Shown here: piece after piece, positions 1 through 62,003 of the stretch
How the letters are laid out: every line of letters starts with the position of its first letter
How positions within the stretch are numbered: position 1 is the stretch's first letter
NCBI RefSeq assembly: GCF_964204645.1
Contig: NC_134031.1
Coordinates: forward strand, 13,317,807-13,381,806
Direction of reading: 5' to 3'
DNA length: 64,000 nt
From: Tubulanus polymorphus
Lineage: Eukaryota > Animalia > Nemertea
Program-made: the position numbers and the translations under genes
Notes under the pieces: model-generated
Seen by the model: only the letters and a program-made list of their open reading frames with translations
Databases searched by the model: none
What the model was told of the DNA's origin: nothing

Positions 1-92
1 TCTGTATTCTTTTAATTCTACCATTATTTATAACATAAAAAAATTACCGCTCATCACTAAAAATTAATCTTAATAAAATTTTTCCTTAATAA

Positions 93-18714: not shown

Positions 18715-18728
18715 AATATGTAAAATAA

Positions 18729-19484: not shown

Positions 19485-19500
19485 TTTTGTCATTATATAA

Positions 19501-19855: not shown

Positions 19856-19858
19856 TAA

Positions 19859-25235: not shown

Positions 25236-25398
25236 GTAACACACACTCGATAAGCGTAGCTTACTGCTGTTGCGGTAACCTTTGATGTACGGGCTGAATT
25301 GAATAGCCTACATCCGGCAATTAAAAGCGCCCGTATTCCATCTCATCACACTTCCCTGCTTATAAGTTTACTAATTAGTAATTTTTTTTGCTAAATAA

Positions 25399-26001: not shown

Positions 26002-26004
26002 AAA

Positions 26005-27183: not shown

Positions 27184-27205
27184 TTTTAATTTTTTTATTA
27201 TGTAA

Positions 27206-28564: not shown

Positions 28565-28614
28565 TAAAAAATAAACATAATCAAAAATAAATAATTAATT
28601 TTTTTGTTAAATAA

Positions 28615-29862: not shown

Positions 29863-29894
29863 AATTTTAACTTTAATAAAAATTTATATAATAA

Positions 29895-31319: not shown

Positions 31320-31871
31320 ATGGAACCAGAACAACCGCAAAGTATTAATATTACAAATAACGCTGGTGTTATAAACATATACTACAAGAAGTGTTCTAAA
31401 TGTGAATTAGATAAATTAGCTTTAACAGAATTTAGTAAGCGTAAGATTAGCAAAGATGGTTTTCAATATTGCTGTGAAACTTGCACTAAACTATATACCA
31501 AACAATATCGAGAAGATAATATAGAACATTATAATTATTATATGACAGAATATATGAGAGACAGATATCAAACAGATCTTAATTTTAGATTGAAACAATG
31601 CTTAAGATCTAGATTAACACAATTATTCAACAAAGAAACGCATTCAGAAACACTATCTAATTTATTGGGTTGTTCAGATGAATTTTTCATATCATGGATA
31701 ATATATCAATTCGATGATAAAATGAATATAGATAATTATGGTGAATACTTTCATATTGATCATGTGTTGCCGATTTCTAAATTTAACATGAGTGATGATT
31801 ACAATAAGAAGCTAATATGGAGCTGGAGAAATTTAAAACCTTTAGAAAAGAAGGAAAACAATAAAATCTAA
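31320..31871 (+). CDS. HNH endonuclease of the giant-virus type, possibly C-terminally frameshifted
   Basis: CSKC...CETC, RSRL, LLGCS, NYGEYFHIDHVLP, NLKPL..KEN. Confidence 0.75.
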   Translation: MEPEQPQSINITNNAGVINIYYKKCSKCELDKLALTEFSKRKISKDGFQYCCETCTKLYTKQYREDNIEHYNYYMTEYMRDRYQTDLNFRLKQCLRSRLTQLFNKETHSETLSNLLGCSDEFFISWIIYQFDDKMNIDNYGEYFHIDHVLPISKFNMSDDYNKKLIWSWRNLKPLEKKENNKI

Positions 31872-36622: not shown

Positions 36623-37357
36623 TATACCAATACAAAATTGCTACACGTTTCTTCTACTAAAAGCGCCACATATTGGGCATTATTTTCATCAGTAAAAGAT
36701 GAACAATCGATATTTCATATTCATTTTCACGAATTCTTATTTTTGTAGTTTACATATTCCATTTATTTTGTAACATATCTATTTCTTTATTAAGTATGGC
36801 TGACACCATTGTTTTGTTTGGTTTGAACCTAGTAACAGGCAAACTCGGTGTTGAGAACAATACCTGAACAATCAAAATGTTAATCCGTTACCTGGTCCAA
36901 GGAGACGGAGCCAAAACCATGGAGGTCCAGTACAGGCCATACTATGACACTCTGGTTTTGGACTCCGACAAATAAACATCATAATCAAATAATATACAAT
37001 ATATATATTTGTCTATCTTCTTGGATATTACAGGTAAGCCAATATATACTTTTACTTTTTTATCAAACCTAGCAGTTTTAGTAAATGATTAATTTCATTC
37101 GATTTTTGGTCATTCATATCTTTATATGAATACGTATTTGTAACTATAATAATCTGTTGTATTTTTAAAATGCTTGGAATAATTTTATAATCATGTAGAC
37201 TCTGGTTTTTGAATCCGACAAATAAACATCATAATCAAATAACATACAATATATATATTTTTCTATCTTCTTGGATATTACAGGTTTTTCAGGTTGTTCG
37301 CTCTCACCACGCTAGTTACCCCCACAAATAGATATCGCACAGTTTTGTCATGTTATA
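36623..37357 (+). repeat. 5' LTR of Gypsy 2
   Basis: Direct repeat of 60455-61292 lacking about 100 bp; TATA..TATA ends. Confidence 0.9.
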
Positions 37358-37536
37358 ATGGTGTGAGAACGCCCGATCCCGATGCCGCAACCTATAAACC
37401 ACAGAAACGTACAATACGGACTGAGAACGAGGACATCAACACCGCTACCAGTTGTCAGCCAACCCAGTTCTCCAGCTTCAAGCAACGACCAACGAAATAC
37501 ATCTTTAAGTGAAACACAATTGTCGACGAAGGAAAC

Positions 37537-40090: not shown

Positions 40091-40281
40091 TTGCTTTAAG
40101 AGGTCGTACTTTTCACGACTGTCATCGCGAGTTCTTTCATTTTAACGCTTAGGACCTTGGACCACATAGCTCATAAGGAATTCAAAGAATTTAAACTGTG
40201 CTTTGGGGTCTGATCAACCTCATGAAACCTTCATTCCTAAGTCACTGCTTGTCTAACCCGCGTGTTTCTTTCTTAGGTGTC

Positions 40282-41384
40282 ATGGTTAAATCCTTACTCG
40301 TGATGATGGTTCTCACTCTCTTCTTTCAAAAGAGTTCCGGTCTCCAGCAACCTCTGAATTATGGTGTCCTATTCAATCACTTGGGTCAGGTGGGTCAAAG
40401 TAATGAATACTGGCTGCACACATTTGCATTCTCACTACCGACGCAGCTTAATCTAGCCACTTTTTGTGACCGCCCTGGTGACGACCCCACCTGTATACTT
40501 CGTAAGAAAATGGCTTTGCATCTCAATGAACTGCAAACAACACTCAATAGTCATATTAACCACGTGACGGATATTGTTACTGAGTTGATCCCTGTCAAAC
40601 TCAAGCGCACCACCAAATCTAGGAGCCGCCGCGCGGCAGTGCTCGGTTTCATTGGGCAATTGTCACGCACACTTTTTGGCACAGCTACTTTACACGACGT
40701 TGAGGTCCTCACCCAACACATCAAATGCACTTACGCGTCGCTCGAACGTCATGGTCCGCTCATTTTAACGACACGGGGCACATTTGTCATCGTATGTAAG
40801 TTTTCTACGCGAACTGATAACGCTTTTAGGGGCATTGCTTCGAACCACAGAGCTATTTCTGATCTTTTTACGAGGGTACAAACTTCTACCAATGAGATGC
40901 TGCGTACTTCCGTTGAAATGGATATAACTTGTACGCTGATTACGTGGAATCTAGTCGGCAAGCTGAACTGCAACTCTTAGAACTAAAACAGACTGTTATA
41001 CGAATTGCTACGAGGCAATTTGTCACCTACCCTCATCTCTAAAGATACCCTTAAAGATTCGATTTTTCAGATTAAGGCTATCTTATAAACAAAATACCAT
41101 GGTTTCACGTTGTCACATCTCGATCCAAATTATTATTTTGACCACGCCAAGTTAATAGCTTCTCGAAATGGATCCACCATCTACGTTTCCATCAAATTTC
41201 CAATGACATCGTTTGAGGCCAACCTAGATATCTATACTTTGATGTCCTTCCCGGTCCCTGTGAACGAATCTTCCTTACATTTGACACAACTACTCGATTT
41301 GCCATCATATTTCGTAGTACTACTCCTCTTTATCGGTATCAGAATTTCAGGCGTGTAATATAATTGCCGACACCTATCAATGTC
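40282..41384 (+). pseudogene. env: Envelope glycoprotein, N-terminal part (class I fusogen-like)
   Basis: Signal-peptide-like start, furin site RSRR followed by hydrophobic AAVLGFIGQLSRTLFGTA; pyrimidine tract + AG just upstream. Confidence 0.75.
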
Positions 41385-41950
41385 AGTAATTAGAAGATGG
41401 CGTTTTCAAACCAGAGTACGAGAGTACGAGCTCGTAAAAATGAAAAACATGAAAATAATAGCAATTTTTACCTGAATTAGTAGCGAAACTCATAAAAATG
41501 AACATTATTTACATGAACTTCATATATTTTAAAATCATTTATATGTTAATTATAAAAGTAATGAGTAATTAACGAGTTGATTAAAATTAGATTTTTAAAC
41601 ATAAAAGTGTGAGTAAAGTGTGAGTGAAATAACTCATTTAATACCAGACGAGACACCCGTCATCACAGCTAGGCGCTAGTGAGAACGGACGATTGCTCTG
41701 TGATACACATATACAGTTAGTGCGCGTAACAACAACTGCGCGTGGATAGATCGATACAGTGAGTCGCTACTGAGAACGGTTATTAACGCGTGTGCGATTA
41801 CTGTAGTACAGTGATTGCGTGTCAACTGTGCTCGGATAAATAGATGCTGTGAGGCTTGGGTGAGAACGGTTAATAGCGTGCTTGTTATATACAAGGGGAA
41901 GTAATCCCCACTCATCACCACAAGTAATTTTTTTTCCTTATAAATGGGGG
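41385..41950 (+). repeat. Left TIR of Polinton C with a ~245-bp insert
   Basis: Inverted match to 58373-58684 except 41667-41911. Confidence 0.88.
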
Positions 41951-44900
41951 AGAATGAACACCAGCCAGAAAACAATAATGTTAATAAAAATCAATATTAT
42001 TGTCCATATTGTAAAAAATACATCGATAAATCTAATAAATCTAAACATGAAAAATCTTCAAATCATATAAAAAATGTTATAGATTTTGAAACTTCAGAAA
42101 ATTCCAATGAAAGAAAATAACGATTAGAAAATATGAATGTGGATGTGATAAAATGTGAAGTTTGTAATGAATTTATAGTAAAAAGGAATTATAATAGACA
42201 TCTCGAATCACAAAAACACCATCAAAATTTGAGTAATAATGTTTTAGGAAAAGATTATTCCTCAACAAGTAAAAAAACCAACTTCAAAAACTAAATCCAT
42301 TTCAAATAAACCCTACATGGAAAATGTTAGAAATTATATCGATACTCTTGAAATAAAAGATACAATTGAAATTTTAGAAACATTACATAGTAAAATTGGT
42401 CCTGCAGCTATTATATTTAGATTTTTTAAAGGTACAACAATAGAAGATTATAGTAAATTTAATGAAATAATAGAAAAAATACTAGATTTGATAACAGATG
42501 TTGAATATCCAAAAATTAGTATCTTTGGGAAAGTAAGTTTTATAAAGTCAGAAGAAAAAATGGATTATAATATTCAAACACTCTCTGAAGAAATAATTTC
42601 AAAAACACAAATAAAAGAGAAGTTAGAAAAAATGTTTAATGAATTTAAACGTCATATTGAAGAAAGATATTTTGAGGGTTCTGGTTTATCTTTAAATGAA
42701 ATTATGTATTTAGACTTAAATGTTTATAATACAAAAAGAAATAAAACATCAAAAAGTAATAAAATGTTTAAAAATGATACAAACTTTATAACAGAAAAGG
42801 ATATTGAAGCATCATCTTATATTAAATTACCATTTACAACAAAAGCACTAATAAATGTTCAAAATGAAGATAATAAATGTTTTCTATGGTCAATTATTAG
42901 TTGCTTACACCCAACAGAAGATATTAAGCATAGATTTAGAATAACAAATTACCGGAAATACGAAACATTATATAAAATTGATCAATATCCAGTAACTATA
43001 AAAATGATACCCAAAATGGAAAAAGTTAATAATTTAAAAATTATGTATTCGGATAAATGCAATTACCAAAGACAAAAGGCGAAAATATTAAAGATTATAC
43101 ATTGGAAGCTTTATATTTAACAGAATATTATGATGATGAAAATGCTATAGATTTGTTATATTACAAAAAAGATGAAAATGAACATTATATGTGGTTAAAA
43201 CAAATTGATTTATTCTTTAGAACAGAAAGTGATTTTAACAGTCATAAAATGTATCTATGTAGAAAATGTTTATCTAAATTTAGAACTGAGAATGCGTTAC
43301 TAAAACAAAAAGAATTATGTGATAATAAAGATTTTTGTAAATTAATATTGCCAACAGGAAAAGATTATAAATTGAAATTTACTAATCATAAATTTAAGAA
43401 TATTGTTCCATTTGTAATTTATGGGGATTTTGAATCGTTGAATAAAGAATTAACTGATCAAGATAGAAAAGAAATATATAACAAAAAGCAATTTATTAAA
43501 ATCAATGGATAAAGGAAATGAATTAAATGAAGACACAACACAAGACCCGCCAATTATAAATACAATTTAAAAAGTTCATCAAAGAGCTGCTGCTTATGGA
43601 ATTTACATAAAATCAAATTATCCTGAATTATATCAAAGTCAATATATTTCTTTTAGAGGTGAAGATGTAGTTAATAATTTTTGTAACAAAATAATTGAAT
43701 TAGAAAATGATTTTGCAAAATTATTAAACAAAAATAAAAGAATAGTTATGACAAAAGAAGATGAAGTTGATTTTAATTACTCAACTCATTGTTGTTATTG
43801 TGAAAAACGTTTTTATTCATTTGATAAAAAAGTTAGAGATCATAATCATTTAAATTCAAAATATCGTGGAGCTGCTCATGAAGATTGTAATTTACAAGCT
43901 AAGAAAGTTAATTTCGTACCAATATTATTTCATAATTTATCAGGCTATGATACCCATCTATTTATAAAACAATTATCGGGAAATTGGGTGCAATTAATCA
44001 AGAAATAGAAGAATATAATGCTATGAATGGTGTAAATGTAAGAAAATATGATTTTAAACTATTGGCTAAATCATCTGAAAATTATATTTCATTTCAATTC
44101 GGTTGGATTAGATTTTTAGATTCTTATAGATTTCTAGCAAGTTCATTAGATAATTTATCAAAAAGTTTAGTTGATAATGATTTTGTTATAACTCGATATT
44201 ATTATCCAAATGAACAAGATTTTAAATTATTGAGATATAAAGGCGCAATTCCTTATTCATTTTATAAAACACATGATGATTTTAATGTAACAAAATTATT
44301 AAAAGATCAATTTTATGATCAATTAAAAGAGGGGAATGTGAAAGATGAAGTGTTTAATAGAACATTAAATATTTGGAACCATTTTAAGATGAAAAATCAT
44401 GGTAAATTAGTTGATTTTTATTTAAAATCAGATGTTATGATATTGGCTGACATATTTGAAAAATTAAGAGAAGTTAATTTGAATCATTTTAATGTTGATC
44501 CTTGTTATTGCTACTCTAGTCCCGGTTTAACCTGGCAATGTGGTTTAAACTACACAAATGTAGAATTAGATTTATTAAAAGAACCAGACATGGTTTTATT
44601 ATTTGAAAAATCAATTAGAGGTGGAATTAGTGGTGTTATGGGAGATAGGTATTTTAAAGCAAATGATGAATATAAATTATTATATATTGACGCTAATAAT
44701 TTATATGGTTGGGCAATGATGCAACCTCAACCATACAAAATTTTTATACTAACAGAAGTTGAAAATGATGATAAAACTGATTGGGAAAGCGCAATTGCGA
44801 GTTTAAAAGATGAAGCACCAATTGGTTATTTCTTTGTAGTTGATTTAGAATATCCTGAAAATATAAAGTTTAAAACAAGAAACTTACCTTATTGCCCAGA

Positions 44901-46991
44901 ACATTTAACTGTAGATGATAGTTATTTAAGTGAATACCAGTAGAAAATAAAACCGAAAGATCATGTTTTTACAGAAAAATTAATACTTACTCAAAATAAT
45001 AAATACAATTATATCGTTCATTATAGAATGTTAAAATTTTATCTAAAACAAGGAATGAAATTAAAGAAAGTACAAAGATATATTGAATTTAATCAATCGA
45101 AGTGGTTAGAAAAATATATATATTTCAATACTCAACAGAGAACCATATCAAAAACAGATTTTGAAAAAGATTTCTTCAAATTAATGAATAATAGTTTTTA
45201 TGGTAAAACATGTGAAAAGTAGTAAATAATTCTGAAAGATTAAGACATTTACAATCAAGTCCTAGACATTTAGGAAATAAAAGATTTGAAGATTATTTAA
45301 CATTAGTTAAATTAAAAAGAACGTCAATGAAATAAACCTATATTCCTAATAAACCTATATTCATTGGTTCAACTGTTTTAGAAGTATCAAAATTATTAAT
45401 GTATAATTTTTATTATAATGTTTTACAACCACTTTTTGGGGAAAAACATATAGAAATCTTATATTTTGATTCTGTTACAGCTGACACCCCAATATTATTA
45501 AAATGTAATGATAAAATATTGATAAGAAGAATTTCAGAAATAATTCCAAAACAAAATGAATGTTATATTTCGTATGGTGAAAAAGAATTAATACAAATAA
45601 ATGAATTAATGGATGTTTGGACAAGAAATGGATGGAAAAGATTAAAGAATATTATTAGGCATAAAACAAATAGGAAAATCTATAGAGTTAGAACTAAATT
45701 AGGGTTTGTAGATGTTACAGAAGATCATAGTTTAATTAGACGAAATGGCGATGAAATTAAACCAATTGATATAAAAATTGGAGATGAATTATTACATAAA
45801 AGATTTTTCCAAAGAATGAATCATATGTCATTCGACGAAATTATTAATAATATTTATAATAGAGAACCTGAAACATTAGAAGAAAAAGAATATTTTATTA
45901 AAGGATTTTTTATGGGTGGTGGTTCAGCAGGTGTGTATAATTATGTTTGGGGTAATAAATATTGTTGGTATTTATGCAATCAAGACTTGAAATTATTAGA
46001 AAGAATTAAGAAATTCTGTGAAGAAGTTTATTCACATAAAACGTTTAGAATCATGGATGTTATGAAATCATCAGCAGTTTATAGAATACTTGTAAATAAT
46101 CCTAAAGATTTTGCTATAAAATATAATGATGAATTCTATATTCATGCAATAGTGAAAAGTAATACTTCAACTAAAGAAAAGATAGTTCAAGATTATGTAT
46201 TAAATGCAAAAAATAATTTAAGAAAATGGTTCTTCATTGGGTTCTATGCTGCAGATGGTTCAAAAAGTTTCAAAAACCGCAAAACAATATCTTTAGCTCA
46301 AAATGGAAAAGTTGCTATATCAGGATTGAATATATTATGCAGTTCATTAGGTTTTAATATGAATATTGGATTGATTAAATCTTAACCAAATTGCTTTAAT
46401 TTAAGCCATGAAGAAAATGAGTTAAAAGAAGAAGTTTAAGATTTATTTGAAATATATAACCCAACAGATTATGTTTATGATTTATCAATTGAAGATGGTA
46501 CATTTAACTGTGGATTTCCATTAATAGCGGTCAATACGGATGCGTACATACTAAAAATCAAGACAAATGATATAAAAAAAGACTTAAAAACATTAAAACA
46601 TCATTTTGATTTTAGCAATTATCCCAAAGATCATGAACTATTTAGCAATGATTATAAAAAGATTCCTTGTAAATTTAAAGATGAATTAGGGGGTGATGAA
46701 ATGATTGAATTTGTTGGGATAAGAAGTAAAATGTATAGTTACAGAACAAAAGATCATGAAGCTAAAAAATTAAAAGGAGTAACAAAACATGTAGTTGATA
46801 AACACATAGAATTTCAAGATTATATAAAGTGTTTATATAACTCAATTGTAATGAAACATAAAATGAATTGTTTAAGATCAGAAGATCACGAGACATACAT
46901 TAATGAAGTTGAAAAAACTAGTTTAAATCCATTTGATGATAAAAGACATATTTCAGATGATGGTATAAAAACATTACCTTATGGTTATTAA
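41944..46991 (+). pseudogene. pPolB with intein (Polinton C), many stops/frameshifts
   Basis: Collinear with 6350-1415; same motifs. Confidence 0.93.
45471..46535 (+). other. Intein with LAGLIDADG endonuclease, 355 codons, two in-frame stops
   Basis: YFD/SVTADTP...DVTEDHSL...GFFMGGGS...GFYAADGS...YVYDLS...IAVN/TDAY; 1065 nt; stops at 46383 and 46437. Confidence 0.93.
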
Positions 46992-48312
46992 AATGGATCA
47001 ATATCATCAAACTCGAAATCACTATTGGTTTCTTCTTTTTCATTTAATTGTTCTTGTATAATTTGTTTAGGTTCTTCCATTTCATTTTTCTCATTTAAAT
47101 AAAGTTCTATATTATTCCACATTTCATCTCGCTCTCTTTGTTTCTTTTTGTTTGTTAATTCATCCAATGGAATTACAATATCGATGTTTAGAAAATTTAC
47201 AATCTTATTTAAAAAGAATTCATAATTAATTGAATCTGTTATTCTATTATCCACATAATATCTTAATATTTGTTTGAATGTTTCTTTTATATTTTCCATA
47301 TCTTCTTCTGTTAATTTAGGTTTTTTATAATAATCGTTAAATAATAAATATAAATACATTTTCTTTTCTTGTGTGTTAAATGTTGATGGAATAATTGTTT
47401 TTATTATATCTTTTTTAGTTATTTCACCATTTTTATTTTCCATCATTTTCATTTTTTCAAGCCATTGCTTATATTCTGGTGTATGATCTTCCATAGAAAA
47501 TATATTAAATATTTCATCTAGATATTTTAATTTTGGTTCTATGAGAAAATCTCTAGTTATTTCATCACCACATAAATTTTTTTCCCATCCACATACATTA
47601 CAAAATATCACAGAACCTTCTTGTCGTAAGTACTCATAAATACATTTTGGACATTTTTGTCTATCATTTCTTAGTAATAGATCTTCCTTAAGCTCTTGGT
47701 ATTTTCTTACGTTTTCTTTATGTTTTATTGTTCTATTATGTAGATTTGAATTACTTGTTGTAATAATCAATTTACAATATTTACAATAATATGTTTTTCT
47801 TGTTAATTCATTATATTGTTTATCTAACTTTTCAACTGTTTCTTTATTATCTGGTAACGTTTTCTCATATTTTATTTTTTTTAATATTTTGTTTTTTCTT
47901 TCATTGAATTCAGTTTCAGTTTTATTAGAAATTTTATCTATATGTATTTTGCGAAATTGATGATTCTCCCAAGCTTCTTTATTTTCAGGACTAAATTTCA
48001 TTCGACAAGGCTCGCAGAAATGATCTTTCATATTATTCTTATCATAGAATAAGAAAGGTCTTTTCCAAATAATTTCAGATTCAACTTCAGCAGAATTACT
48101 TTTACTTTCATTACTATCAACATTAGCCGTTGCACCATTAATTTTATACTTCTCTGAATGTTTTTAACATAATTTCTTGAGAATAATTTATTACATTTAG
48201 GGCAGTTTATTTTAGGGGGTTTATAATTTTCATCATGTTTTTTCATATGTCAAGCCATATTACTTTTTCTGATAAGTTCACCACAAATTTCACATCCTAT
48301 CTTCTCATCCAT
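46988..48312 (-). pseudogene. Zinc-finger / VLTF3-like gene (Polinton C copy)
   Basis: Homolog of 93-1418 with frameshifts in the 5' part. Confidence 0.75.
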
Positions 48313-48380
48313 TTATTTAGTAAAAATTTTATTAAAATCAATTTTTAATGATGAGCGGTAATTTTTTTATGTTGTAAATA

Positions 48381-49131
48381 ATGGTAGAATTAAAAGAATA
48401 TAGAATATTTGTTGATTCAAGAAAACTTACAAATTATAAATCTCATAATTTACTAGTACAATTAGATAGAGAATTTAAGAATTGTGTTGATTTAAAATGA
48501 GTTAATATAAGTTTATGTAATTCTTTTCATAATATATCGAATAAAAGTCTAGAACATTTAATGTTTTCAATCTTTTACAAAAAAGGAATAAATGGTTTTT
48601 TATATATTTAAAACCAGGATTATATAATTTAGATACATTAGCGCAAGAAATTAATAAAAAAGCTCGAGCTAAATTAGGAAGTGATTCCGGATTTAACATT
48701 AGATTTTCAAAAAGTGATAGTTCTAATAAAATAAAGATTAGGTTAGCTCATGATGAACAATTTGAATTTATTGTAAGAAAATCTTTAGCTAAACTGTTAG
48801 GAATTAACCCAGATATTGTTACAGTAAACGTAGAAGGTAGATCAAACTAAATACCTTACACACATTTCTATATTTATTGTAATTTAATTAATCCTACAAA
48901 AACATTTGAAGCAACTAAAGATACAATTTGTAATTCTAGTATATTAAATATTTTACCATTAAAAAATGTTAAACACTTTGGAACACAAATTAATTATTAT
49001 TTATCAGAATGCGAATTTAAACCTTGTATTTCAAGTTTTAACTTTTAGAAGTAAGAAATCATAATGGATATTTAGTTGATTTGAATAACTTTCCTGTGAT
49101 ATATGAATTAGTTATAAGATGTAAAGAGTAA
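48381..49131 (+). pseudogene. Putative minor capsid (penton) gene
   Basis: Homolog of 18729-19484 with internal stops. Confidence 0.7.
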
Positions 49132-49147
49132 TTTTTTCATTATATAA

Positions 49148-49505
49148 ATGAATATAACTGTTGGACCGAGTATATGTTTTGGATTTGATTTTGAACGTGA
49201 GAAAGAAATGAAATTTAACATTAATGATGTAATTATACATATTAAAAATATTGTATTTTCTAATGAAACAACATTTGAGTATGAAAAAACAATAGATAAA
49301 GAACCTTTGAATGTAGAAAAGATTACTAATTTAATTAGAGAATCTTTTATAGAGAGATTTTATGAATTAGATGAAGATTTTATCATCGATGATATTAAAA
49401 AATAATAATTGAAATATATACAAATGAAACTAGTAATGAAATAAATGTTGAAATAATCATAACTAAGATAACTAAATATTTTGAAGATAGTAATTTTTTT
49501 GATTA
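49148..49505 (+). pseudogene. Hypothetical protein
   Basis: Homolog of 19501; TAAATG start. Confidence 0.55.
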
Positions 49506-49509
49506 ATAA

Positions 49510-49731
49510 ATGAGTGATAATAAGTGGATAATAACTGGATTATATAATGGAGCATTATTATCAGTGGGAACTAATGGTTATTCAATGGTATTAAAAAAAG
49601 TATCTAAAATGGGAAGTGTTAATGTTGATAGATTTGATATAAATGATATTTTTAAATTAACATTAGCAGTTACTTTATCTAATTTAACTATTGATTATTT
49701 GGAAAAACAAAAATATATTCCTCCTATATAA
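49510..49731 (+). CDS. Small hydrophobic protein
   Basis: 73 aa, TAAATG start, homolog in B. Confidence 0.6.
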   Translation: MSDNKWIITGLYNGALLSVGTNGYSMVLKKVSKMGSVNVDRFDINDIFKLTLAVTLSNLTIDYLEKQKYIPPI

Positions 49732-49755
49732 TTACATAATTTTTTTGCTAAATAA

Positions 49756-50163
49756 ATGGCTTCTGTAATTCTAACTATTATAGGAACAGCAATTGTTAAC
49801 GCTTTAGCATTTACTGGCCGTAGTTATTTATTTAGGCATATAGATAAAAATAGTTCATTAGAAGAACAAAAAAGACATAACATAGCATTAGCTTCAGAAG
49901 AATACAGAGAAAAGAGGCAAAACTATATGGATTACATCAATAAAGAATTATATGATCAGAAGATTTCACATAGAGATTTTCAATCAGTTGATGATGCAAT
50001 GAGTTTATATAACGCGGTAACCAATAAAAAAAAATTACATCGATACAAACCTAAATTATTAGATTATTATACCCCAAGTAAAGAACAACAGAAATATGAA
50101 ATAATTTGGATTTTAGGTGAAACAGTTATTGTTATATTTGTTGCATATAAATTTACTAATTAG
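49756..50163 (+). CDS. Small protein with N- and C-terminal hydrophobic segments
   Basis: 135 aa, TAAATG start, homolog in B. Confidence 0.65.
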   Translation: MASVILTIIGTAIVNALAFTGRSYLFRHIDKNSSLEEQKRHNIALASEEYREKRQNYMDYINKELYDQKISHRDFQSVDDAMSLYNAVTNKKKLHRYKPKLLDYYTPSKEQQKYEIIWILGETVIVIFVAYKFTN

Positions 50164-50182
50164 TAATTTTTTTGTTAAATAA

Positions 50183-50617
50183 ATGGATGATAAAGTTGAT
50201 AATATTGATATTATTCCTCATGATATAAATAAAACTAAATTAAAAATATATTTAGAAAAACAAATATTAGAATTTGAAAGTGACTTAAAGATAAAAAAGA
50301 AAAAATATTTAAAAAGTAAAATTACATATTATCTTATTATTAGTGGTTCAGTTACAATTAGTTCTGTAATAACATTTCTAGCAATATTCTCGCCATTAAC
50401 ACCTTTAGCTATATCAATTGGTGTGCGAGGTTTAAGTTCAAGTGTTTTAACCGGCATAAGTCCAAAATTAAATATAAAAAGTAATAAAGAAAAAATTAAA
50501 ACTAATATAAAAGAAATTAATAAATTGAAGAATACACTAGATTATATAATAAGTTTAAATGGCCATATAACAGTTGAAGAACAAGATAAATTATTAAAAG
50601 AATTAATAAATTATTAA
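50183..50617 (+). CDS. Two-TM membrane protein
   Basis: 144 aa, homolog of 25399. Confidence 0.65.
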   Translation: MDDKVDNIDIIPHDINKTKLKIYLEKQILEFESDLKIKKKKYLKSKITYYLIISGSVTISSVITFLAIFSPLTPLAISIGVRGLSSSVLTGISPKLNIKSNKEKIKTNIKEINKLKNTLDYIISLNGHITVEEQDKLLKELINY

Positions 50618-50633
50618 TTTTTTAATTATATAA

Positions 50634-51925
50634 ATGGGGTTTCCAAAAGCTTTCCAATATAATTAATCATATAGATATTTAATTCCACCTATAGATTTTA
50701 ATAGTATTATAACATATAAAAATGTAGTTTTACCTTCATTAATTAATTTAGAAATTTATGTTACTGAAACAAAGTTTTTCATTTCTAGAATGGAAAACAT
50801 ATTTAATACATATGAAGTTACTTTTACTCGAGATGAATATAATATATATAAAATAAAATCTAATATGAAATATTGGCAGAATCAATTAAATTGTGCTGTT
50901 TATTGTGCAAAAACAGGGTGTGGTATAAGTTGGTTGATCACTTGAATAATTTATATAACAATTTGTCTTATTCAGATTTAAAATTCATTCATACAATATT
51001 TAGATTTCATGCGTACTTTCAAATTAGAATTATATTAAATGAATTAGAATGTCCTTTACCTGGATCGAAATATTTTAAAGAATTGGATAATAATATTAAT
51101 CTATCTAAGTTTTATAAAATATATAATGAATTTAATATAAATATTAATTCCGATTTTAGAGCGCATGGTAAATTGCAAGGTATTGGTGAAGAGTATGAAA
51201 TAAAAAGAATTGATTATATGCATAGAATTTCAGCTTATCATAATTAAAAAATCGATAATGATGATGGTTGGAATAATTTTATTATAGATAATGGTGAAGG
51301 TTTTACAAAACCTGGTATACAAAGAATAAATCAATCAATTAGAACTTATTTAATTTGTATTTTAGGCGCGCAAGTTGAAACAAGATCACCAATAGTTGGA
51401 AATGATAGTACTTCATTTGATGCGCAGAAACAATTCAAAGTATTATTTGAAGATTCTATTCATAATGATAAAAATAGATCGATTCCAGAAAACCTTGTAA
51501 GATATCAAAATTATTTAGATAAATCACATATTAGATTAAATTATTGTATAGGCCCTAATCTATTAATTATTTCTAATGATTTAGTATTAAAGATGGGAAA
51601 TATAATTGGTTATAATAATCTAATTAAAACTGCAACAATAAATAATTCATTTGGATTAAATGATATAAATAAAAAGATAATTACTACTCCAAAATTAATG
51701 GAAGGTGAAAAAAATAAAAAACATATTCAATCAACAGAAACTAAAACTAAGAATATTAAATTAAATAATGATTCAAAAATAAAAGATTACAATACTACAG
51801 AAAATATTAAAACTGATAATATTCAACATGAAATAATTAAACTAAATGATGATAATAAATCCCATGAAAATGCTAAGTTAGCTTTAACTTGTATAGGAAT
51901 TGTAATCGGAGGAATATAATATTTT
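50634..51925 (+). pseudogene. Conserved uncharacterised Polinton protein
   Basis: Homolog of about 25810-27183, disrupted. Confidence 0.6.
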
Positions 51926-51950
51926 AAATTTTAATTTTTTTATTATGTAA

Positions 51951-53309
51951 ATGGATGTAGAAGGTGTAGAAGATTATGAAATGGGAGAAATGGGAAATAA
52001 TAATGAAGGATATATTGATGATGATTATAATGATGCAGAAACTAATATTGATAATGATGATGAATCAGCATATAATTCTAATTTAACAGATAGTAGTTCT
52101 AAAACCATATCAACAGGTGAATTTGATAGAAGAACTAAATCGAAAATAAATCCTGAAAATGAAGATCCATATTTAGTAAGACAAGATTTAGATTATATAG
52201 ACCAAATGTATAAATTCAAACCTATATTTATTCTGGATATAATGTAAATGATAGAGGCGCTAGACTTTTAGTACAAGAATTAAAATATTTAGATGACGAA
52301 TATTATTATCATTTGAATGAAGAATATTATATTGATATCTCTTATAAAAATCAAAACAAAATATTAGCAGAATCAACTTTGGAAAAATTAGAACCAGATA
52401 GAATTAAAAAAATAAGTATTAATAATGAAATAGAAAATGTAACACAAGAAAAAATAAAACAAAATAGAAAAATATTTAAACAAAGAATTAATGAATTATT
52501 TGAAACAATCAATAATAATTTAGAACCAGAAACAACTTCTGGTAAACTTAAATCAAATAAAGTACCAATTGAAAAACTTTTACCAAATGGATTACTTGAT
52601 GCAACAGATCAAGAATTAGAAGATTTAGATATATTTTCTGATGAAGCAATTAGAGAAATTATTAGTATAAGAAATGAAGCTGATAAAATTGCACATAATA
52701 AAAGTATAAGATATTATTGAAGTTATTGAAGAAATTGAAATTAAAAAAAATGCATATTAAGAAAAAGAAATTGAAAAATTAGAATATAATATAGAATTTC
52801 AGAAAGAAGAGAGAGATATATTATCAAAAGAATATGGTAATAATTTTAAAAGGTTAAAAGATGTTTTTAAAAGATATCTAATAAAACCAAATTCTGAAAT
52901 ATCATTAAAAGATAGAATAAGATTATTATTTAAGTTTGAAGGAATCACAATTCTTTCAATTCTAACAGCTGTAACTATGGTATTCACAACAATAGGTTTA
53001 GCAATATCAAATGCTTTAAAATCTACACCTACTCCCAATAACCCGGATAAACCCCCAGATAATAATTCAATACAAGATAAAGTTAAGGATTGTTTAGAAA
53101 AATTAGCAAAATATTTATGGGAACTATCTAAAAAATCTGCTGCAGAATTACCCGGAGTTATTGCATCAATTGTTGGTTTTATATTGAAATCTGCTGGGAA
53201 TATTCTTAATTCTGCTGCTGAACATATTATTTTATTTTTAATTACAGTTGTAAGTGCAATTATTTTTGGGTTAGTGAATATGATATCAAACGATATCAAG
53301 AAAAAATAA
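51951..53309 (+). pseudogene. Large acidic/coiled-coil/TM protein, frameshifted
   Basis: Nearly identical to 27206-28564. Confidence 0.7.
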
Positions 53310-53359
53310 TAAAAAATAAACATAATCAAAAATAAATGATTAATTTTTTTGTTAAATAA

Positions 53360-54534
53360 ATGAGTGGGAGTTATATAAGTCCTTCTAAGATTTCTAGAAT
53401 ATCTAATGCTATTAAAGCAGAAAGATCACATCATATTATTACTCATAATCCTTCAAATATTAATCCCGATGAAACTTTATATGTTAGAATCCCTAGATTA
53501 ACAAAAAATACTTTTTATGTTCCAAATAGTATTTATTTATCAGCTGATATAAAAATAACCGGTAATAATAATAATTATGTTGTTGATAATGTTGGAAGAT
53601 ATTTGATTAAAAAATTAACTATAAAGATCGGCCCAGAAACAGTTTTCTCATTAGATGATTATAATTTATTTATGCATTATAAAGATTTATGGTTAACTAA
53701 AGAAAATAGAAATAATGACGTAGATAATTTGATTAAAAAGATTTATGGAAGCAAATATAAAATTCCATTAGACTTTGAATTGATAAATAATAATGCACCT
53801 TTATATAAATATGCAATTCAAAAAGATATTATATTTGAGATAACATTTGCTCCTGTAAATGAAATTGTATTATCTAACGTTGTTAAAGATATGGGTTATA
53901 AATTATCGAATATATGTTTAGAATATAATACAGTAACTAATGAAAATATTGCTAATACAATTCAAACACAATACAATCAAGGCTTTTCATTATTATATGA
54001 TTATATTGATAAATTTAAAACTGTAACTATTAATGCAAATAATGAAATAATTAATAAGAATATTAACTTCCCAAGAAGATCTATTAAAGGTATATTAATA
54101 TTTTTTACCATTGCAACATATTCTAATGGCGCAATAAAGGTAGATAATTATTATAATCCTGAAATAACAAAAGTAGAAATAACTATCGAAGGAATAGCAA
54201 ATAAAATATTTTGTCAAGCAATGAGAATGATTGATCAATGGCCAGAAATTAGAAAACATTTTATGAATTAAAAAGTAAAATCATCTGAAAATTTTAATTT
54301 TAATCAAATTGATTATTATGCCGGCAATAAATATGCATTATGGTTAGATTTTAGAACAACAGAGGATAATTCATTACATGGTTCTGGGAAAAAACTACAG
54401 AACACTAAAGATGGAATACAATTATTCATGAAAAAGAAAAAAGGAAGCTTAAATTTTAAAATGCACATTTATATTTTATACCTGACGCACAATTAAATAT
54501 TGTAAATTCACAATTAGATAGTATTCAATATTAG
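53360..54534 (+). pseudogene. Putative major capsid protein
   Basis: Homolog of 28615 with an in-frame deletion near 53715 and a stop at 54269-54271. Confidence 0.75.
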
Positions 54535-54564
54535 AAATATAAAGTTAAAATTAACGATATATAA

Positions 54565-56101
54565 ATGGTTGGTAAAAAAACTCCTAATACTAAAGAACAA
54601 TATTTAAGAAATTCATATTACAACCCTGAGAGTTCGGTTGCTTATTCTTCTACCAAAAATATATGGCGTCAAGTAAAACAAGATAAATTATATAAGATAA
54701 TCCCACAAAATTTAGTTAAATATAAAGATATAAATGATATATGTTAGAACAACCGACGTATACAACACATAAAAAAATTGTTAGAAAATATAAAACTCGT
54801 AAAACTATGGTAAGTTATGTAGATCAACAGTGGCAAGGAGATTTAATTGATATGAAAAATGTTAAGAAAGATAATGATGATTATTGGTGGATATTGAATA
54901 TAATTGATATTTTTAGTCGTTATGTATGGAGTTTCCCACTTTATAGAAAAGATGCTGTACAAACATCAAATGTTTTAAGAAAATTTCTTTCGGATGATAA
55001 ACTAAAACCAGAAAAAATACAATTTGCTGATGGAAAATAATTTGATAATCCACTTGTTCATGAACTCTTAGACAATCATAATATTAAATATTTTTCAACA
55101 AAATCGGATAAAAAAGCAGCAGTTGTTGAACGATTTAATACAACATTAAGAAGAAGAATGTGGAAATATTTTACAGCAAATAATACTTTTAAATGGATGA
55201 TGTTTTGATGTTTTACCAAAATTGATAGAAGGATATAATAATTCTTATCATTCTTCTATTGGAATGAAACCTATTGATGCTAGAAAACCTGAAAATGCTG
55301 AAATTGTTTGGAATAATTTATATGGAGCATTTCTCGTAGATGATTTTGGTGAACCTAAATTTAAAGTTGGTCAAAATGTTAGAATTTCTAAGTATAAAAA
55401 GATCACGATAGGTAGAACACAATATCCGTGTTGACGCGATGAGGAGAGAATCCCACAATGATAATAAAAAGTCCGAAAATGAAACTTCGAGATAATAGTT
55501 TATTTCAACGTTTCGACTATATCCTAATAGTCATCTTCAGGAATACTGAGATACTACAGAAATTATGAGATATATATACAATCCAGAGACAAAGAGACTA
55601 ATTCAAGTAATCAGAGATGATACAAACTAAAGGAAAATTAACGTAGAAACAGTTACACGCTAAAATAGATTAAAGGGAAGCAAACTACCCCGATTTCCTA
55701 TTGAAAAAAGCTCTACTTAAAGCTCGTACTACGCAGTTTTACTCTCGAAGTTTTATTTTCGGACTTTTTATTATCATTGTGGGATTCTCTCCTCGTATAA
55801 AAAGATATTTGATAAGGGATACGATCGAAATTTTACTAGAGAAATATATAAAATAAAAAAGGTAATAACAACAAAACCATATGTCTATAAATTAGAAGAT
55901 TTAAATGGTGAAGAAGTTGATGGGTATTTTTATGAAGAAGAATTGAGTTTAACTACTGAAAATCTAGAACAAGAATATGAAATTGAAAAAGTATTAAAAA
56001 CAAAAACTGTTAAAAGAAAAAAATATTCTTTAGTAAAATGGGTTGGATGGCCAGATAAATTCAATGAATGGATATTATCAAGTAAAATTGAAAATATATA
56101 A
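54565..56101 (+). pseudogene. rve integrase with chromodomain, disrupted and interrupted
   Basis: WQGDLIDM, IDIFSRY, VERFN, VKWVGW; insertion at 55404-55794. Confidence 0.88.
55404..55794 (-). mobile_element. Short Penelope-like insertion with inverted repeats
   Basis: 12-bp TSD GTATAAAAAGAT (55392-55403, 55795-55806); about 52-bp inverted repeats at 55441-55492 and 55743-55794; hammerhead-like core. Confidence 0.7.
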
Positions 56102-56709
56102 ATTAATAAGGAATTATTTATATTTGAGCCTCATAATATGTTAATTTCTGGTGTAACAAATTGTGGAAAAACTTATTTTATATTAAATTTATTAGAAACT
56201 GTTTATAAAAACTATTTTGATAATATAGTATTATTTTGTCCAACATATGATTTTAATCAAACTTATGATAGAAATATTACTAAAAATAATAAATTTATTA
56301 TATTAGATCCTATAACAGTAAAAGAAAAATTAGATAATTGTATTAAAATAGCAATTGATGTTTATAAAGGATCAAATACATTATTCATTATAGATGATTG
56401 CACAAATTTACATGATTCAAAATTTGAGAGAGTGAGTTATGTTATTTAGCTTTTTCTGGTAGACATTTTAGGATAACAACTTGGGTTTTAAATCAAAAAT
56501 ATAATTCAATCGTTAAAGATTTTAGAGAAAACATTCGATTTTTAGTTTTATTCTACAATAAAGATAGAAAATCGATGAAAAATGCGCTTGAGGAAAATGA
56601 TATTATTCCGCATGATTTACATAATGAATATATGGACAAATTGAAAAATAATAAAAGATCAAAATTACTATTTAGATTACAACACCCATTTAAATATGAA
56701 TTTATTTAA
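56102..56709 (+). pseudogene. A32/FtsK-like packaging ATPase
   Basis: GVTNCGKT, FIIDD; start mutated, frameshift near 56425. Confidence 0.88.
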
Positions 56710-56975
56710 ATTCAACTAGCTTGTTAATCTATTACATATTTAGTTAGATTCTAGTTGAATTCTATTTATTAGTAGTTGAAACAAAAAAATAAATAAAAAC
56801 AACAATATCTTAACTAGCTTGTTAATCTAGTATATTTTTAGTTACATTCTAGTTGAATTCTAGTTATTGGTAGTTGGAACAAAAATCAACTAGATTTAAC
56901 AAGAAATAAATAAAAACAATAATAATTCAACTAGTTTGTTAATCTAGTTGATTTTTAGTTACATTCTAGTTGCAA
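56708..56975. repeat. Intergenic array of palindromic CAACTAG/CTAGTTG repeats
   Basis: Three degenerate units of AACTAGCTTGTTAATCTA...ATTCTAGTTG. Confidence 0.65.
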
Positions 56976-57003
56976 CATCACAACTAATTTTTTTGTTATA
57001 TAA

Positions 57004-57609
57004 ATGGGAGGTGAAAAGAAAATCAAATCTAAAAATGGCCATGTTCCCATTGAAAAAACTTTAGATGATTTAGGAATAACAGAAACAAAATTAACTCCAG
57101 TTGATGGTGTTTTAAATAATGTTACAATAAATATTGATTATAAATATTCTCTTTATTGTAAACATCAATTAGAAATATTAATAGCATCTGGGAAATGTAA
57201 AAGTTTTATTAGTAAAAATTTAACTTATAATGAATCAGATACAATGAAATCAGATGAAATTATTAAATTATTTAAGATTTATGAAACTGCGAGAATAGCT
57301 AGAATTAATGACGCGATATCAGAAAATGTAGTAAAAGGTTATAGTAAATTATGTAATTATATGTTGCCAATTCAAGATGAAAAAAGATTATATTCCGATT
57401 TTAAAAATGATTATTTAGTTATGACTGAATTAAATAAGTGGATTGGATATTTATCATTTCAATTAGGTGGATTTATGACATTATTATCAACTGGAGTTAT
57501 AACATTTTCGAATATTGAAAGTAAAGATTTTTCTACAATAAATGAGCGAAGTGGAAGAAGTGAAGGAATTAACTGTGAAGAAAAACCTGAGAAGTCCGAA
57601 ACAAAGTGA
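57004..57609 (+). CDS. Conserved hypothetical Polinton protein
   Basis: Homolog of 33120. Confidence 0.65.
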   Translation: MGGEKKIKSKNGHVPIEKTLDDLGITETKLTPVDGVLNNVTINIDYKYSLYCKHQLEILIASGKCKSFISKNLTYNESDTMKSDEIIKLFKIYETARIARINDAISENVVKGYSKLCNYMLPIQDEKRLYSDFKNDYLVMTELNKWIGYLSFQLGGFMTLLSTGVITFSNIESKDFSTINERSGRSEGINCEEKPEKSETK

Positions 57610-57931
57610 ATGGTCTCGGCAATTAGGAATTAAATCACAAGAATATAAAAAAGCTAAAAAAGAAGGAATAAATAATGAAAATTTTAATAATAGTGAAAAT
57701 ATTGTTATTTCTACTCCTTCTAATAATAGAACATTTGATGAATGTCTATATTTAACAGTTGGATTTGTAATTGTATTCATTTTGATTGGGTGTAATTGGT
57801 ATAAGAAATCAAATAAAATTCATGATATTTATAATTCTGAAACAACTGCTATCAAAAATGAAAATACTTCTGAAATTCCAAAATTGACGATAAAAAAATG
57901 GACTAATATTTTAGAAAAAAGCAAAAAATAA
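57542..57931 (+). CDS. Small basic single-TM protein
   Basis: Homolog of 33715. Confidence 0.6.
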   Translation: MSEVEEVKELTVKKNLRSPKQSEWSRQLGIKSQEYKKAKKEGINNENFNNSENIVISTPSNNRTFDECLYLTVGFVIVFILIGCNWYKKSNKIHDIYNSETTAIKNENTSEIPKLTIKKWTNILEKSKK

Positions 57932-58054
57932 TTTCATTTTTAATCAATTAAATATCTCACTACTTTTGTCTATCTATGTGGAGCAATTAAATTGTCCAGA
58001 AGTCATTTCGGATTCTAGATATTCATTATTTTAATTGATTTATTTTTTTTAAGT

Positions 58055-58381
58055 TTAATCAACAATTTCTAAATCATGATGACCATCTTCATTTTTTCCA
58101 TGATAGATTATTTTAAATCCTTCTAAATCTTTTAATTCCTCTGTACTCAATGAAACCCATTTATCAGGTAAAAATACTTTAAATTCTCGTGATGTACTAA
58201 CATTGCAGTAGCTTAAATTAGCTGATATTTTATCTCCATATTTAGTTTTAACCTTTTCTAATTTCAATATTTTGTGTTCAATTTCTTTTGTAACATCGAC
58301 TAACTTTTTAATTTCAAATTGTTTTTTTGCTGGTTTAATTCTGTTATTTATTGTTGCTAAGAATGCTTTTCTATCTCCCAT
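58055..58381 (-). CDS. Small conserved Polinton protein, start codon inside the right TIR
   Basis: KYGDK...FLPDKW...YHGKNEDGHH; homolog at 18373-18714. Confidence 0.7.
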   Translation of the reverse strand: MGDRKAFLATINNRIKPAKKQFEIKKLVDVTKEIEHKILKLEKVKTKYGDKISANLSYCNVSTSREFKVFLPDKWVSLSTEELKDLEGFKIIYHGKNEDGHHDLEIVD

Positions 58382-58684
58382 ATATAAGGAAAAAAAATTA
58401 CTTGTGGTGATGACGGGTGTCTCGTATGTAATGAGTTATTTCACTCACACTTTACTCACACTTTTATGTTTAAAAATCTAATTTTAATCAACTCATTTAT
58501 TACTCGTTACTTTTATAATTAACATATAAATGATTTTAAAATATATGAAATTCATGTAAATAATGTTCATTTTGTATGAGTTTCGCTACTAATTCAGGTA
58601 AAAATTGCTATTATTTTCATGTTTTTCATTTTCATGAGCTTGTACTCTCGTACTCTGGTTTGAAAACGCCATCTTCTAATTACT
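58373..58684 (-). repeat. Right TIR of Polinton C
   Basis: Inverted match to the left TIR. Confidence 0.9.
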
Positions 58685-58690
58685 AATGTC

Positions 58691-60454: not shown

Positions 60455-61292
60455 TATACCAATACAAACTTGCTACACGTTTCTTCTACTAAAAGCGCCA
60501 CATATTGGGCATCATTTTCATCAGTAAAAGATGAACAATCGATATTTCATATTTCATATTCATTTTCATGAATTCTTATTTTTGTAGTTTACATATTCCA
60601 TTTATTTTGTAACATATCTATTTCTTTATTAAGTATGGCTGACACCATTGTTTTGATGAGCAGACATAAAGTCTGGCCAAGTATTGTTTAAATCTCAGAA
60701 TAGCTACTGAGCCAGAACAGCTAATTAGAACAAATTCACTAATTACTGGCATGTTTGGTTTGAACCTAGTAACAGGCAAACTCGGTGTTGAGAACAATGC
60801 CTGAACAATCAAAATGTTAATCCGTTGCCTGGTCCAAGGAGGCGGAGCCAAAACCATGGAGGTCCAGTACAGGCCATACTAGGACACTCTGGTTTTGGAC
60901 TCCGACAAATAAACATCATAATCAAATAATATACAATGTATTTGTCTATCTTCTTGGATATTACAGGTAAGCCAATATATACTTTTACTTTTTTATCAAA
61001 CCTAGCAGTTTTAGTAAATGATTAATTTCATTCGATTTTTGGCCATTCATATCTTTATATGAATACGTATTTGTAACTATAATAATGTGTTGTATTTTTA
61101 AAATGCTTGGAATAATTTTATAATCATGTAGACTCTGGTTTTGGACTCCGACAAATAAACATCATAATCAAATAATATACAATATATATATATTCGTCTA
61201 TCTTCTTGGATATTACAGGTTTTTCAGGTTGTTCGCTCTCACCACGCTAGTAACCCCCACAAAAAGATATCGCACAGTTTTGTCACGTTATA
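60455..61292 (+). repeat. 3' LTR of Gypsy 2
   Basis: Preceded by PPT GTAGTAGGGGAGGA; followed by TSD ATAG. Confidence 0.9.
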
Positions 61293-62003
61293 ATAGGGTA
61301 CTCCCTCACATTAGAGTCACAGAATTGTACAAAGTGACGAAGGACCGCCAATCTCATATCCAGTTTACATCAACCATGTTGCGAAAAGAGGTAAAGTCAT
61401 TAGGTGGGAAAACTGGGCCAGTTAGGTTTGGAGAAAAACCCTTTCAGCGACGCGCATACCGAAGGAAAATGTCTCTAATGATTTATGGAGAGAAATCAAT
61501 TACTACATTTTTTTTCGATTTCAATGCATTGTACTTAGATTCTTTATTTGATTGTTTATAACTAACTAGTATTGTAGACTTTGAAGATGAAGATGTCCGT
61601 GAACAAGAAAATTACTGGGAACAAGATGACCGGAAACAACAAGATGACCGTGAACAGGAAGATTAGATAGAACAACTGGATGAACAAAACAATGTGGTAC
61701 AGCAAGATAACAATTTAGAAGAACAAAACGATTTATTACAAGATTATATGGAAGAACAAAATCATTTGGTACAGCAAGATGATTGTTGACTTATCCAAAG
61801 GTAAATGTACAAAATAGAATGTACTACATACGTAAGTGAACTTACAGAAGGAAATATTGTAACTTTATTTTCGTTTTTTTGGAAATTGTAGACCTTATCA
61901 AGGAAATCGTAAATGCGATGAAAACAAGATCGACAAAGGTTCGACTTTTTTTAAATATTTCATATGAATCATGTAAACAAAACAAAACAAAAAAATTTTT
62001 TCG

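Follow-up and report, generated by a model that had tools for sequence, protein, structure and literature searches.

Which transcription machinery reads the genes of a Polinton in which no RNA polymerase gene is recognizable? This question is raised by element A, a full-length, decayed Polinton at positions 41385-58684 of a 64,000-nucleotide stretch of DNA from Tubulanus polymorphus (contig NC_134031.1, positions 13,317,807 to 13,381,806 of the forward strand), which will be referred to as the window and which also holds two related elements, B and C. The terminal inverted repeats (TIRs), the target site duplication (TSD) and the core genes of A were all identified. A first-pass annotation of this DNA had described such elements as built like virophages of a cytoplasmic pox-like or giant virus, pointing to gene starts with a T-run and TAAATG, a VLTF3-like gene, an intein in motif C of the B-family DNA polymerase that is protein-primed (pPolB), very AT-rich genes, the lack of an RNA polymerase and an HNH gene in B. 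Each of these observations was borne out by the analyses presented here. We propose that the lineage probably depends on the late transcription machinery of a nucleocytovirus, as virophages do, and that the description of the helper as pox-like appears over-specified.

A bipartite gene-start signal in element A and its capsid clade

TAAATG was found at 12 of the 14 ATG starts of A compared to 41 of its 683 other ATGs, and the two remaining starts are each one base off the motif (the ATPase gene, which has lost its start codon, was left out of this count). Of 12 starts tested, 11 follow a run of at least four T together with TAA, as do 8 of the 685 remaining ATGs (Fisher p 2e-18). Searching with the capsid protein yielded 581 homologs and 46 metagenome loci, from which 114 starts of 25 elements were scored; near-duplicates, loci without a usable start and uncurated loci were left out. 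In the group with 51-77% capsid identity, 75 of 84 starts carry TAAATG (42/48 by automated open reading frame (ORF) calling), whereas none of the 30 starts in the remaining elements does. The motif is found at 159 of the 3438 other ATGs of the same clade (4.6%). In a FastTree capsid tree of unnamed relatives, comprising 11 rows from TAAATG elements, 3 from elements with other starts and 28 without DNA, the TAAATG elements lie on one side of a branch with an SH support of 99.

Upstream of the clade starts, A dominates at position -18 and T reaches its peak (0.89) at -12; counted from TAAAT, T has frequencies of 0.89 and 0.75 at distances of 9 nt and 10 nt upstream, respectively. In 45 of the 75 starts, the spacer between the T-run and TAAATG measures 5-8 nt, and 36 of these fall within 5-7 nt; 17 of the 75 have no run of four T. 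The gene-start signal is bipartite, consisting of a T-rich core, a spacer of approximately 6 nt and TAAATG. Position -3 is occupied by T in 90% of the clade starts and by A or G in 83% of the starts outside the clade; a pyrimidine at -3 provides a poor translation context. The motif opens first genes and head-to-head gene pairs, pPolB, VLTF3, the HNH gene of B and, in the metagenome relative L005, a deoxynucleoside kinase gene that is absent from A and B (L005:10340-10981; PF01712, E 1.7e-31). Element B has no VLTF3 gene and retains the motif in 12 of 14 starts.

It appears highly improbable that the motif is no promoter and arose merely from AT bias, from the stop-start packing of genes, from overlap with a polyadenylation signal or from the translation context. 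Such an origin might be suspected, as the elements are approximately 76% AT (the GC content of A is 21-26% in most 1-kb bins) and AATAAA overlaps 6 of the 12 TAAATG starts in A. Nevertheless, the motif is rare at other ATGs, and in the clade, with its GC content of 20-44%, it persists in members of 40-44% GC (L006, 3/4; L008, 3/4), so that AT-richness does not explain it. Stop-start packing was rejected, since the TAA of the motif is the stop codon of the upstream gene in only 1 of 12 junctions of L005, and at first genes and head-to-head pairs no upstream gene ends at the motif. A polyadenylation signal was rejected as well, because 5 of the 12 starts in A have TATAAA and not AATAAA. As to further identities, a Pol II TATA box was dismissed for lying too close to the ATG, and a trans-splice acceptor for want of an AG ahead of the ATG.

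Scans of IMG/VR with capsid, ATPase or pPolB queries detected no members of the clade, and a scan of GTDB returned two short contigs that are probably contamination of bacterial metagenome-assembled genomes (MAGs). Capsids of the TAAATG clade are also annotated in several Bartonella sp. assemblies (P0046 cluster), on contigs of less than 2 kb where a length is given; these are probably host-derived contamination.

Comparison of the signal with viral late promoters

The vaccinia late promoter consists of a T core, a spacer of 5-7 bp and TAAAT(G/A) according to PMC5294985, with a conserved T approximately 10 nt upstream according to PMC11980589. All of these features, that is, a TAAAT overlapping the ATG, a T-rich core at 5-7 bp and a T at approximately 10 nt, are found in the clade, in which TATAAATG variants account for 15 of 42. 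In a comparison with single viral loci, the sharp T peak and the TATAAATG variants would seem to fit the published vaccinia pattern best.

Several loci, however, argue against the pox label. TAAATG was detected at 22 of 49 starts in four loci assigned to the iridovirus type by gene content (MSV199, DUF3627, WIV domain, RNase III), which had partly been selected by the search pattern; with the selecting start removed, 7 of 15 remain in L305 and 5 of 13 in L313. All of the iridovirus-type TAAATG starts read (T/A)AATAAATG, and their T peak is weaker (0.59). An entomopoxvirus-type locus (L049, with MSV199, NAD ligase and A2L) shows TAAATG at 6 of 17 starts, locus L074 likewise at 6 of 17, and a Sputnik-type virophage (L154) at 4 of 7, two of these by selection, with the ATAAATG form present. 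Across 79 viral loci fetched for intein-bearing PolBs, the motif marks 96 of 940 starts, and 48 of 413 in loci below 30% GC. In two promoter-pattern scans of IMG/VR (120 loci listed each), no listed locus came near the frequency of the clade, and the top informative loci were of the iridovirus type, along with a virophage.

TAAATG thus appears to be a wider nucleocytovirus signature that is not specific to poxviruses. Of the pox-like helper that had been proposed, the helper part is in agreement with a nucleocytovirus-type post-replicative promoter before nearly every gene, with VLTF3 and with an intein shared with giant-virus-type PolBs, whereas the pox-like part does not stand in this form, since TAAATG starts also occur in iridovirus-type and other giant-virus loci and in a Sputnik-type virophage. 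Helpers of the pox type and of the iridovirus type would both fit; a pox-type virus would agree best with the promoter geometry, and an invertebrate iridovirus-type virus is to be regarded as a real alternative.

A sister lineage (L016:1-10290, with the near-duplicate L017; 49% GC, 43% capsid identity) shows a bipartite motif of another kind, TTCT-N8-9-TATA, which was seen nine times compared to 0.44 in shuffled sequences and adjoins an ATG in six cases. Its spacing resembles that of the late promoter in African swine fever virus (ASFV), for which PMC5294985 gives TATTT at -15 to -11 and TATATA at -1 to +5.

VLTF3 and the question of an autonomous virus

The VLTF3-like gene of A (46988-48312, minus strand) encodes the late transcription factor domain behind N-terminal zinc fingers, begins at a T-run with TAAATG and carries a frameshift near its 5′ end. 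Its product is 82% identical, over the aligned part, to that of an unbroken 441-amino-acid (aa) ORF in C (93-1418, plus strand). PF04947 was matched above its cut-off of 25 bits on a 95-aa piece of A (47090-47374; E 8.7e-7, 29.2 bits) and on a trimmed C-terminal piece of C (E 1.3e-6, 28.7 bits); the match depends on trimming, as it was not obtained with the untrimmed ORFs or with two pieces of A that were longer. The Atlas returned VLTF3 clusters at 0.95-0.96. The zinc ribbon and the helical domain of the family are present in the predicted protein, whose model has a pLDDT of 80.5 and a nine-row alignment that includes one entomopox-like protein. Searching BFVD by fold with this model gave cowpox VLTF3 as the first match (E 1.3e-6) and two entomopoxvirus VLTF3s in fourth and fifth place, closely followed by giant-virus VLTF3s; the pox lead may stem from the entomopox-like row, and non-pox VLTF3s lie within about two orders of magnitude.

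Foldseek searches of the PDB with the model gave nothing at E<=0.001; the weak rows include chains that we take to be TFIIB and Rap94, and VLTF3 is a TFIIB-like factor. A word-index search with the VLTF3 region retained none of 834 candidates, and phmmer against 1.84 billion representatives found five, one of them a repeat artefact. At least three further proteins or clusters contain homologs, and in the viral loci fetched only three were present. Taken together, Pfam, Atlas and the predicted fold confirm the homology, and the absence of homology by HMM or structure, which the first-pass annotation had considered as a refutation, did not occur.

As a pointer to a helper, the gene is weaker than had been presented. 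VLTF3 has already been published for a subgroup of polintoviruses, coral ones included (PMC11131425, citing Krupovic and Koonin 2016), and mriyaviruses, thought to replicate in the nucleus, are described as keeping VLTF2 and VLTF3 without an RNA polymerase (PMC11253617). Since VLTF3 occurs there without an RNA polymerase, the gene alone does not show helper dependence, and it was rejected as proof of it.

The mriyavirus case at the same time weighs against a helper and lends itself to another explanation, in which the elements belong to an autonomous nuclear virus whose own VLTF3 steers host Pol II to a nucleocytovirus-derived initiator, copies without VLTF3 being served in trans. We consider this rather unlikely. 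It would agree with the sister lineage L016, in which a VLTF3-like ORF (6543-7052; PF04947 E 6e-4, below the cut-off) occurs together with the different bipartite motif, as if factor and motif co-varied, and with the rise of about 30 genomic copies while a helper is not in evidence. VLTF3 and pPolB, however, share the motif of the capsid genes, so that no separate early class is apparent that would start the cycle. Furthermore, among the 112 stop-to-stop ORFs of at least 55 aa in A and B, many of which are unannotated, no match to RNA polymerase, TBP, VLTF2 or protease families was obtained. With this motif there is also no room for a 5′ UTR, and a T in position -3 would be unfavourable for translation unless the RNA started inside the AAA.

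An intein in motif C of pPolB

The pPolB gene of A (41944-46991, plus strand; PF03175 E 6.7e-13) encodes N-terminal zinc fingers, starts at a T-run with TAAATG and is broken into six pieces with four stops. Motif C of the polymerase is interrupted, between its D and T, by a 355-codon intein with a LAGLIDADG domain (45471-46535, plus strand in A), which is present in A and C and absent from B. TIGR01445 was matched with 29.1 bits (cut-off 24.5), along with PF14890 and LAGLIDADG_3 (PF14528). The hallmarks of an intein, an N-terminal splicing block, Ser1, a terminal Asn before Thr and the LAGLIDADG domain, are all present. Both inteins of the window are interrupted, and unbroken frames were found in P0135 and P0136.

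Among the best 120 of 177 matches to the intein, the first four are pPolBs or a pPolB fragment with 47-62% identity, and RNA-primed PolBs make up the remainder along with a few topoisomerase IIs; 101 of the 115 listed inteins with an N-terminal match occupy the YGD site. The P0136 cluster comprises 136 members on contigs of up to 1 Mb and represents another assembly set with many intein-bearing pPolBs; the intein start was seen at motif C in 7 of its 15 listed members, and the pattern was unmatched in the other 8. In a quick tree of 55 of the 64 full-length inteins, the five pPolB inteins cluster together (SH-aLRT 100) among same-site inteins of RNA-primed PolBs, and their sister group is not settled. 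As nearest carriers we found no poxvirus PolBs but giant-virus PolBs of the Pol-delta-like kind, along with a small group resembling T4/RB69; the four carriers tested were Pol-delta-like. Of the viral contigs found with the nearest carriers, 42 of 79 bear giant-virus MAG labels, including 19 of the top 20. In type II topoisomerases, members of the same intein family were observed at the D-x-D motif (P0203, P0207, P0211, P0213, P0217).

From these relationships, a single transfer from a giant-virus-type PolB would be the likeliest origin, a co-infecting virus having probably passed the intein to pPolB by homing on one occasion. A point against a nucleocytovirus as the certain donor is that P0144, P0145 and P0151, close to the pPolB group, are RB69-like (P0144 has the other two as its clear companions among 95 compared) and that the fork is unsettled. 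In the intein, an encounter of Polinton DNA with other viral DNA within a single cell has left its physical mark, and a homing intein thereby resides, in tens of copies, in what is probably the genome of an animal.

Copies, mosaicism and selection

Copy A is a fossil. Stops or frameshifts disrupt pPolB, VLTF3, the minor and the major capsid gene, the integrase, the ATPase and two genes of unknown function, and A therefore cannot encode its core proteins. Element B (13988-36035, plus strand) is a related Polinton with nested insertions, a TIR identity of 93.8% over 274 columns and a TSD with one mismatch; element C (1-6394, minus strand) is incomplete and matches A's left arm with 92% identity. 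Element A proved to be a mosaic, with a C-like left arm (41908-48404 matching C 1-6386) and a capsid block that is approximately 90% B-like (48373-54568 matching B 18719-29898), whereas its pPolB and right end are 67-81% like B. This structure argues for recombination between co-replicating elements and thus indicates recent co-replication.

The median read depth over A was approximately 315-fold, compared to approximately 10-fold in four flank bins (genomic run X5, of which about 12% was read, at 88% likeness). This suggests about 30 genomic copies, provided that the flank is single-copy. Most reads over A are 90-99% alike to the window copy. Pairwise dN/dS values between copies were 0.07-0.46 in nine comparisons and 0.65 for VLTF3, which shows that selection has acted on the lineage in recent times, even though A itself is dead.

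These data bear on the possibility that the signal is relic wiring, that is, that the ancestors were helper-dependent while the present copies spread by intragenomic transposition or read-through transcription and meet no helper. In favour of this, A has no intact core gene, other transposons interrupt or flank A, B and C, and no free ends were seen in the 12% of run X5. We nevertheless judge this explanation improbable, as there is purifying selection between copies, accessory genes keep the motif, the metagenome relatives L001, L004 and L005 combine unbroken ORFs with the full motif, and the mosaic points to recent co-replication.

Probable dependence on a nucleocytovirus helper

One late-type initiator on every gene class, together with the lack of a polymerase, means that an outside polymerase must start the cycle. 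Dependence on the late machinery of a nucleocytovirus is hence the explanation that we hold to be probable. The motif would then act as a transcription initiator with the RNA starting inside the AAA; late mRNAs of poxviruses carry a non-templated 5′ poly(A) leader. The helper would supply polymerase, capping and late factors, and the VLTF3 of the element might tune or compete for this machinery or help to activate the integrated copy. Replicated and packaged by pPolB, capsid and ATPase inside or close to the helper factory, the genome would be reinserted by the rve integrase. The nucleotide kinase, the HNH gene, VLTF3 and the intein are all consistent with life beside a large DNA virus.

Several points weigh against helper dependence. 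Neither a genome, a particle nor a transcript of a helper was seen; the 84 clade starts include many orthologs in related elements, so that the counts are not independent; and no pile-up of DNA molecule ends was detected at the TIRs in the reads covered. Moreover, the integrated copy is nuclear and a pox-type polymerase cytoplasmic, and their meeting is unexplained. Iridoviruses begin replication in the nucleus according to PMC5294985, which might give such a helper easier access to the integrated copy.

A promoter code fixed in a whole clade makes helper dependence directly testable and predicts that a large DNA virus infecting the host awaits discovery. More tentatively, the clade might represent animal-associated endogenous virophages, kept in the germ line in tens of copies, switched on by pox- or iridovirus-type late machinery and dampening that virus, with the start motif as a helper barcode for each lineage (ASFV-like in L016). 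We regard this extension as unlikely on present evidence; if true, it would amount to a virophage-type inherited defence in animals. The heritable antiviral reservoir envisaged in the first-pass annotation gains no support here, as A can no longer encode its core proteins and neither a helper nor a protective effect was found.

Organization of element A and its surroundings

The ends of A are exactly placed by a perfect 6-bp TSD on both sides (41379-41384 and an identical hexamer at 58685-58690). The TIRs (left, 41385-41666, plus strand; right, 58407-58684, minus strand) are 94.7% identical over 283 columns, with the termini AG...CT. Between the left TIR and the pPolB start lies a GC-richer stretch of approximately 240 bp (41667-41907), which many reads, ending loosely at 41908, do not enter.

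Divergent from the VLTF3 gene follows a broken gene (48381-49132, plus strand) that presumably encodes a minor capsid (penton) protein, a label which we assign, unconfirmed, from position and sequence pattern; for this 251-aa ORF, the copy in B gave a weak DUF5901 match alone (E 0.036). Four small conserved ORFs of 85, 73, 135 and 144 aa (49148-50617, plus strand), each at TAAATG, have homologs in L005 with 62-86% identity, and the 144-aa ORF is weakly SLATT-like (SLATT_fungal E 0.008 on the copy in B). Two conserved genes without assigned function (50634-53309, plus strand; approximately 440 and 485 aa in L005) are both broken and both at TAAATG. The double-jelly-roll (DJR) major capsid gene (53360-54534, plus strand) is broken in A and unbroken in B (28615-29862); the model of the B ORF (pLDDT 83.7) matched DJR capsids in Foldseek with E 4e-17.

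The rve integrase with a C-terminal chromodomain (54565-56101, plus strand; PF00665, PF00385) is broken and contains an inserted repeat of approximately 400 bp (~55392-55795), which is skipped by the reads; a small high-copy repeat is common to this region and the nested insertion of B at 20834-21102. The A32-type packaging ATPase (56102-56709, plus strand; PF04665 E 3.8e-7) is likewise broken. Two conserved ORFs of 201 and 129 aa (57004-57931, plus strand) start at TAAATG, and a conserved 108-aa ORF (58055-58381, minus strand; 72% to L005:125-469) reads inward from the right end, its upstream stretch resembling that of pPolB (self-match 6316-6394 vs 58348-58425). An endonuclease VII domain was observed inside pPolB (PF02945 E 1.8e-5, B 16149-16508, and the matching part of the A gene). 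The extra genes of B are a zinc-finger ORF (29895-30782) and the HNH gene (31320-31871; phrog_1035 E 5.5e-13, from a library of phage families only). The zinc-finger ORF holds a 24-bp coding repeat in 5.5 copies (30086-30218), in a slot without a gene in A.

Element A was inserted into the env-like ORF of a host LTR retroelement (36623-61294, plus strand; LTRs at ~36623-37359 and ~60455-61294, pieces 95-96% identical), in which 40222-40977 gave a weak Baculo_F match (E 0.0013). The 4-5% divergence of these LTRs bounds the age of the insertion. Around the three AT-rich elements, the window is transposon-rich with approximately 31-47% GC and contains Gypsy RT/RNaseH/integrase, MULE, FLYWCH-MULE and the LTR element; a 397-bp near-perfect tandem duplication within a MULE transposase (12570-13370) may be recent or an assembly artefact.

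Comparison with known systems

With TIRs, AG...CT ends, a 6-bp TSD, pPolB, an rve integrase with chromodomain, a DJR capsid and an A32 ATPase, the elements agree with Mavericks/Polintons (Polintoviricetes; adintoviruses, PMC8502044). Many proteins encoded on large assembly contigs share 37-39% identity with the capsid, one of them from the bivalve Mactra antiquata; together with the transposon types of the window, these relatives make an animal host probable. What sets the elements apart is the clade-wide T-run with TAAATG, the Hint and LAGLIDADG intein in motif C and the very low GC content of the sub-clade of the window. Group 1 Maverick-Polintons are described as having an adenovirus-type cysteine protease in most members (10.64898/2026.06.19.733378), in contrast to A and B, where none was found among the 112 ORFs.

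Endonuclease insertions in pPolB are known, including an HNH insertion in pPolB2 (PMC10748475) to which the endonuclease VII/HNH domain found here is comparable, and have been suggested to stem from intein invasions (PMC11161782). The motif-C inteins of giant-virus RNA-primed PolBs share with the present ones the insertion site, the N-terminal start, a length of approximately 330-370 aa and 30-41% identity. They differ in their carrier, which here is the protein-primed PolB of an integrating element, the inteins forming a group of their own, and in that intein-bearing (A, C) and intein-free (B) alleles here occur within one genome.

Entomopoxvirus-associated Polinton-like viruses (PLVs; AHEV_PLV1/2, CBEV_PLV1 and Ca_PLV1) are small DJR viruses proposed to be parasites of poxviruses in invertebrates (Barth et al., PMC11296320). 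By the description in that paper, three measure approximately 12 kb and were obtained from occlusion bodies; an adenovirus-type protease is present in each of the four, and instead of rve they carry a tyrosine recombinase or no integrase; the terms promoter, TAAAT, VLTF and intein do not occur in its main text. The literature searched, mostly open-access main texts, contained no report of poxvirus-type promoters in Polintons or of a true pPolB intein; VLTF3 in Polintons was already published.

The elements further differ from virophages in giving no Sputnik_MCP match (L154 hits at 2e-93), with the mavirus capsid at rank 39 in Foldseek, in the maturation protease, which was not found in A and B, in their probable animal host and in a VLTF3 of their own. 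Mavirus shares the late promoter of its helper. In common with mavirus-type virophages and Gezel-14T-type PLVs, the elements integrate, have no RNA polymerase and place one late-type promoter before all genes, and with mavirus they also share the combination of pPolB and rve.

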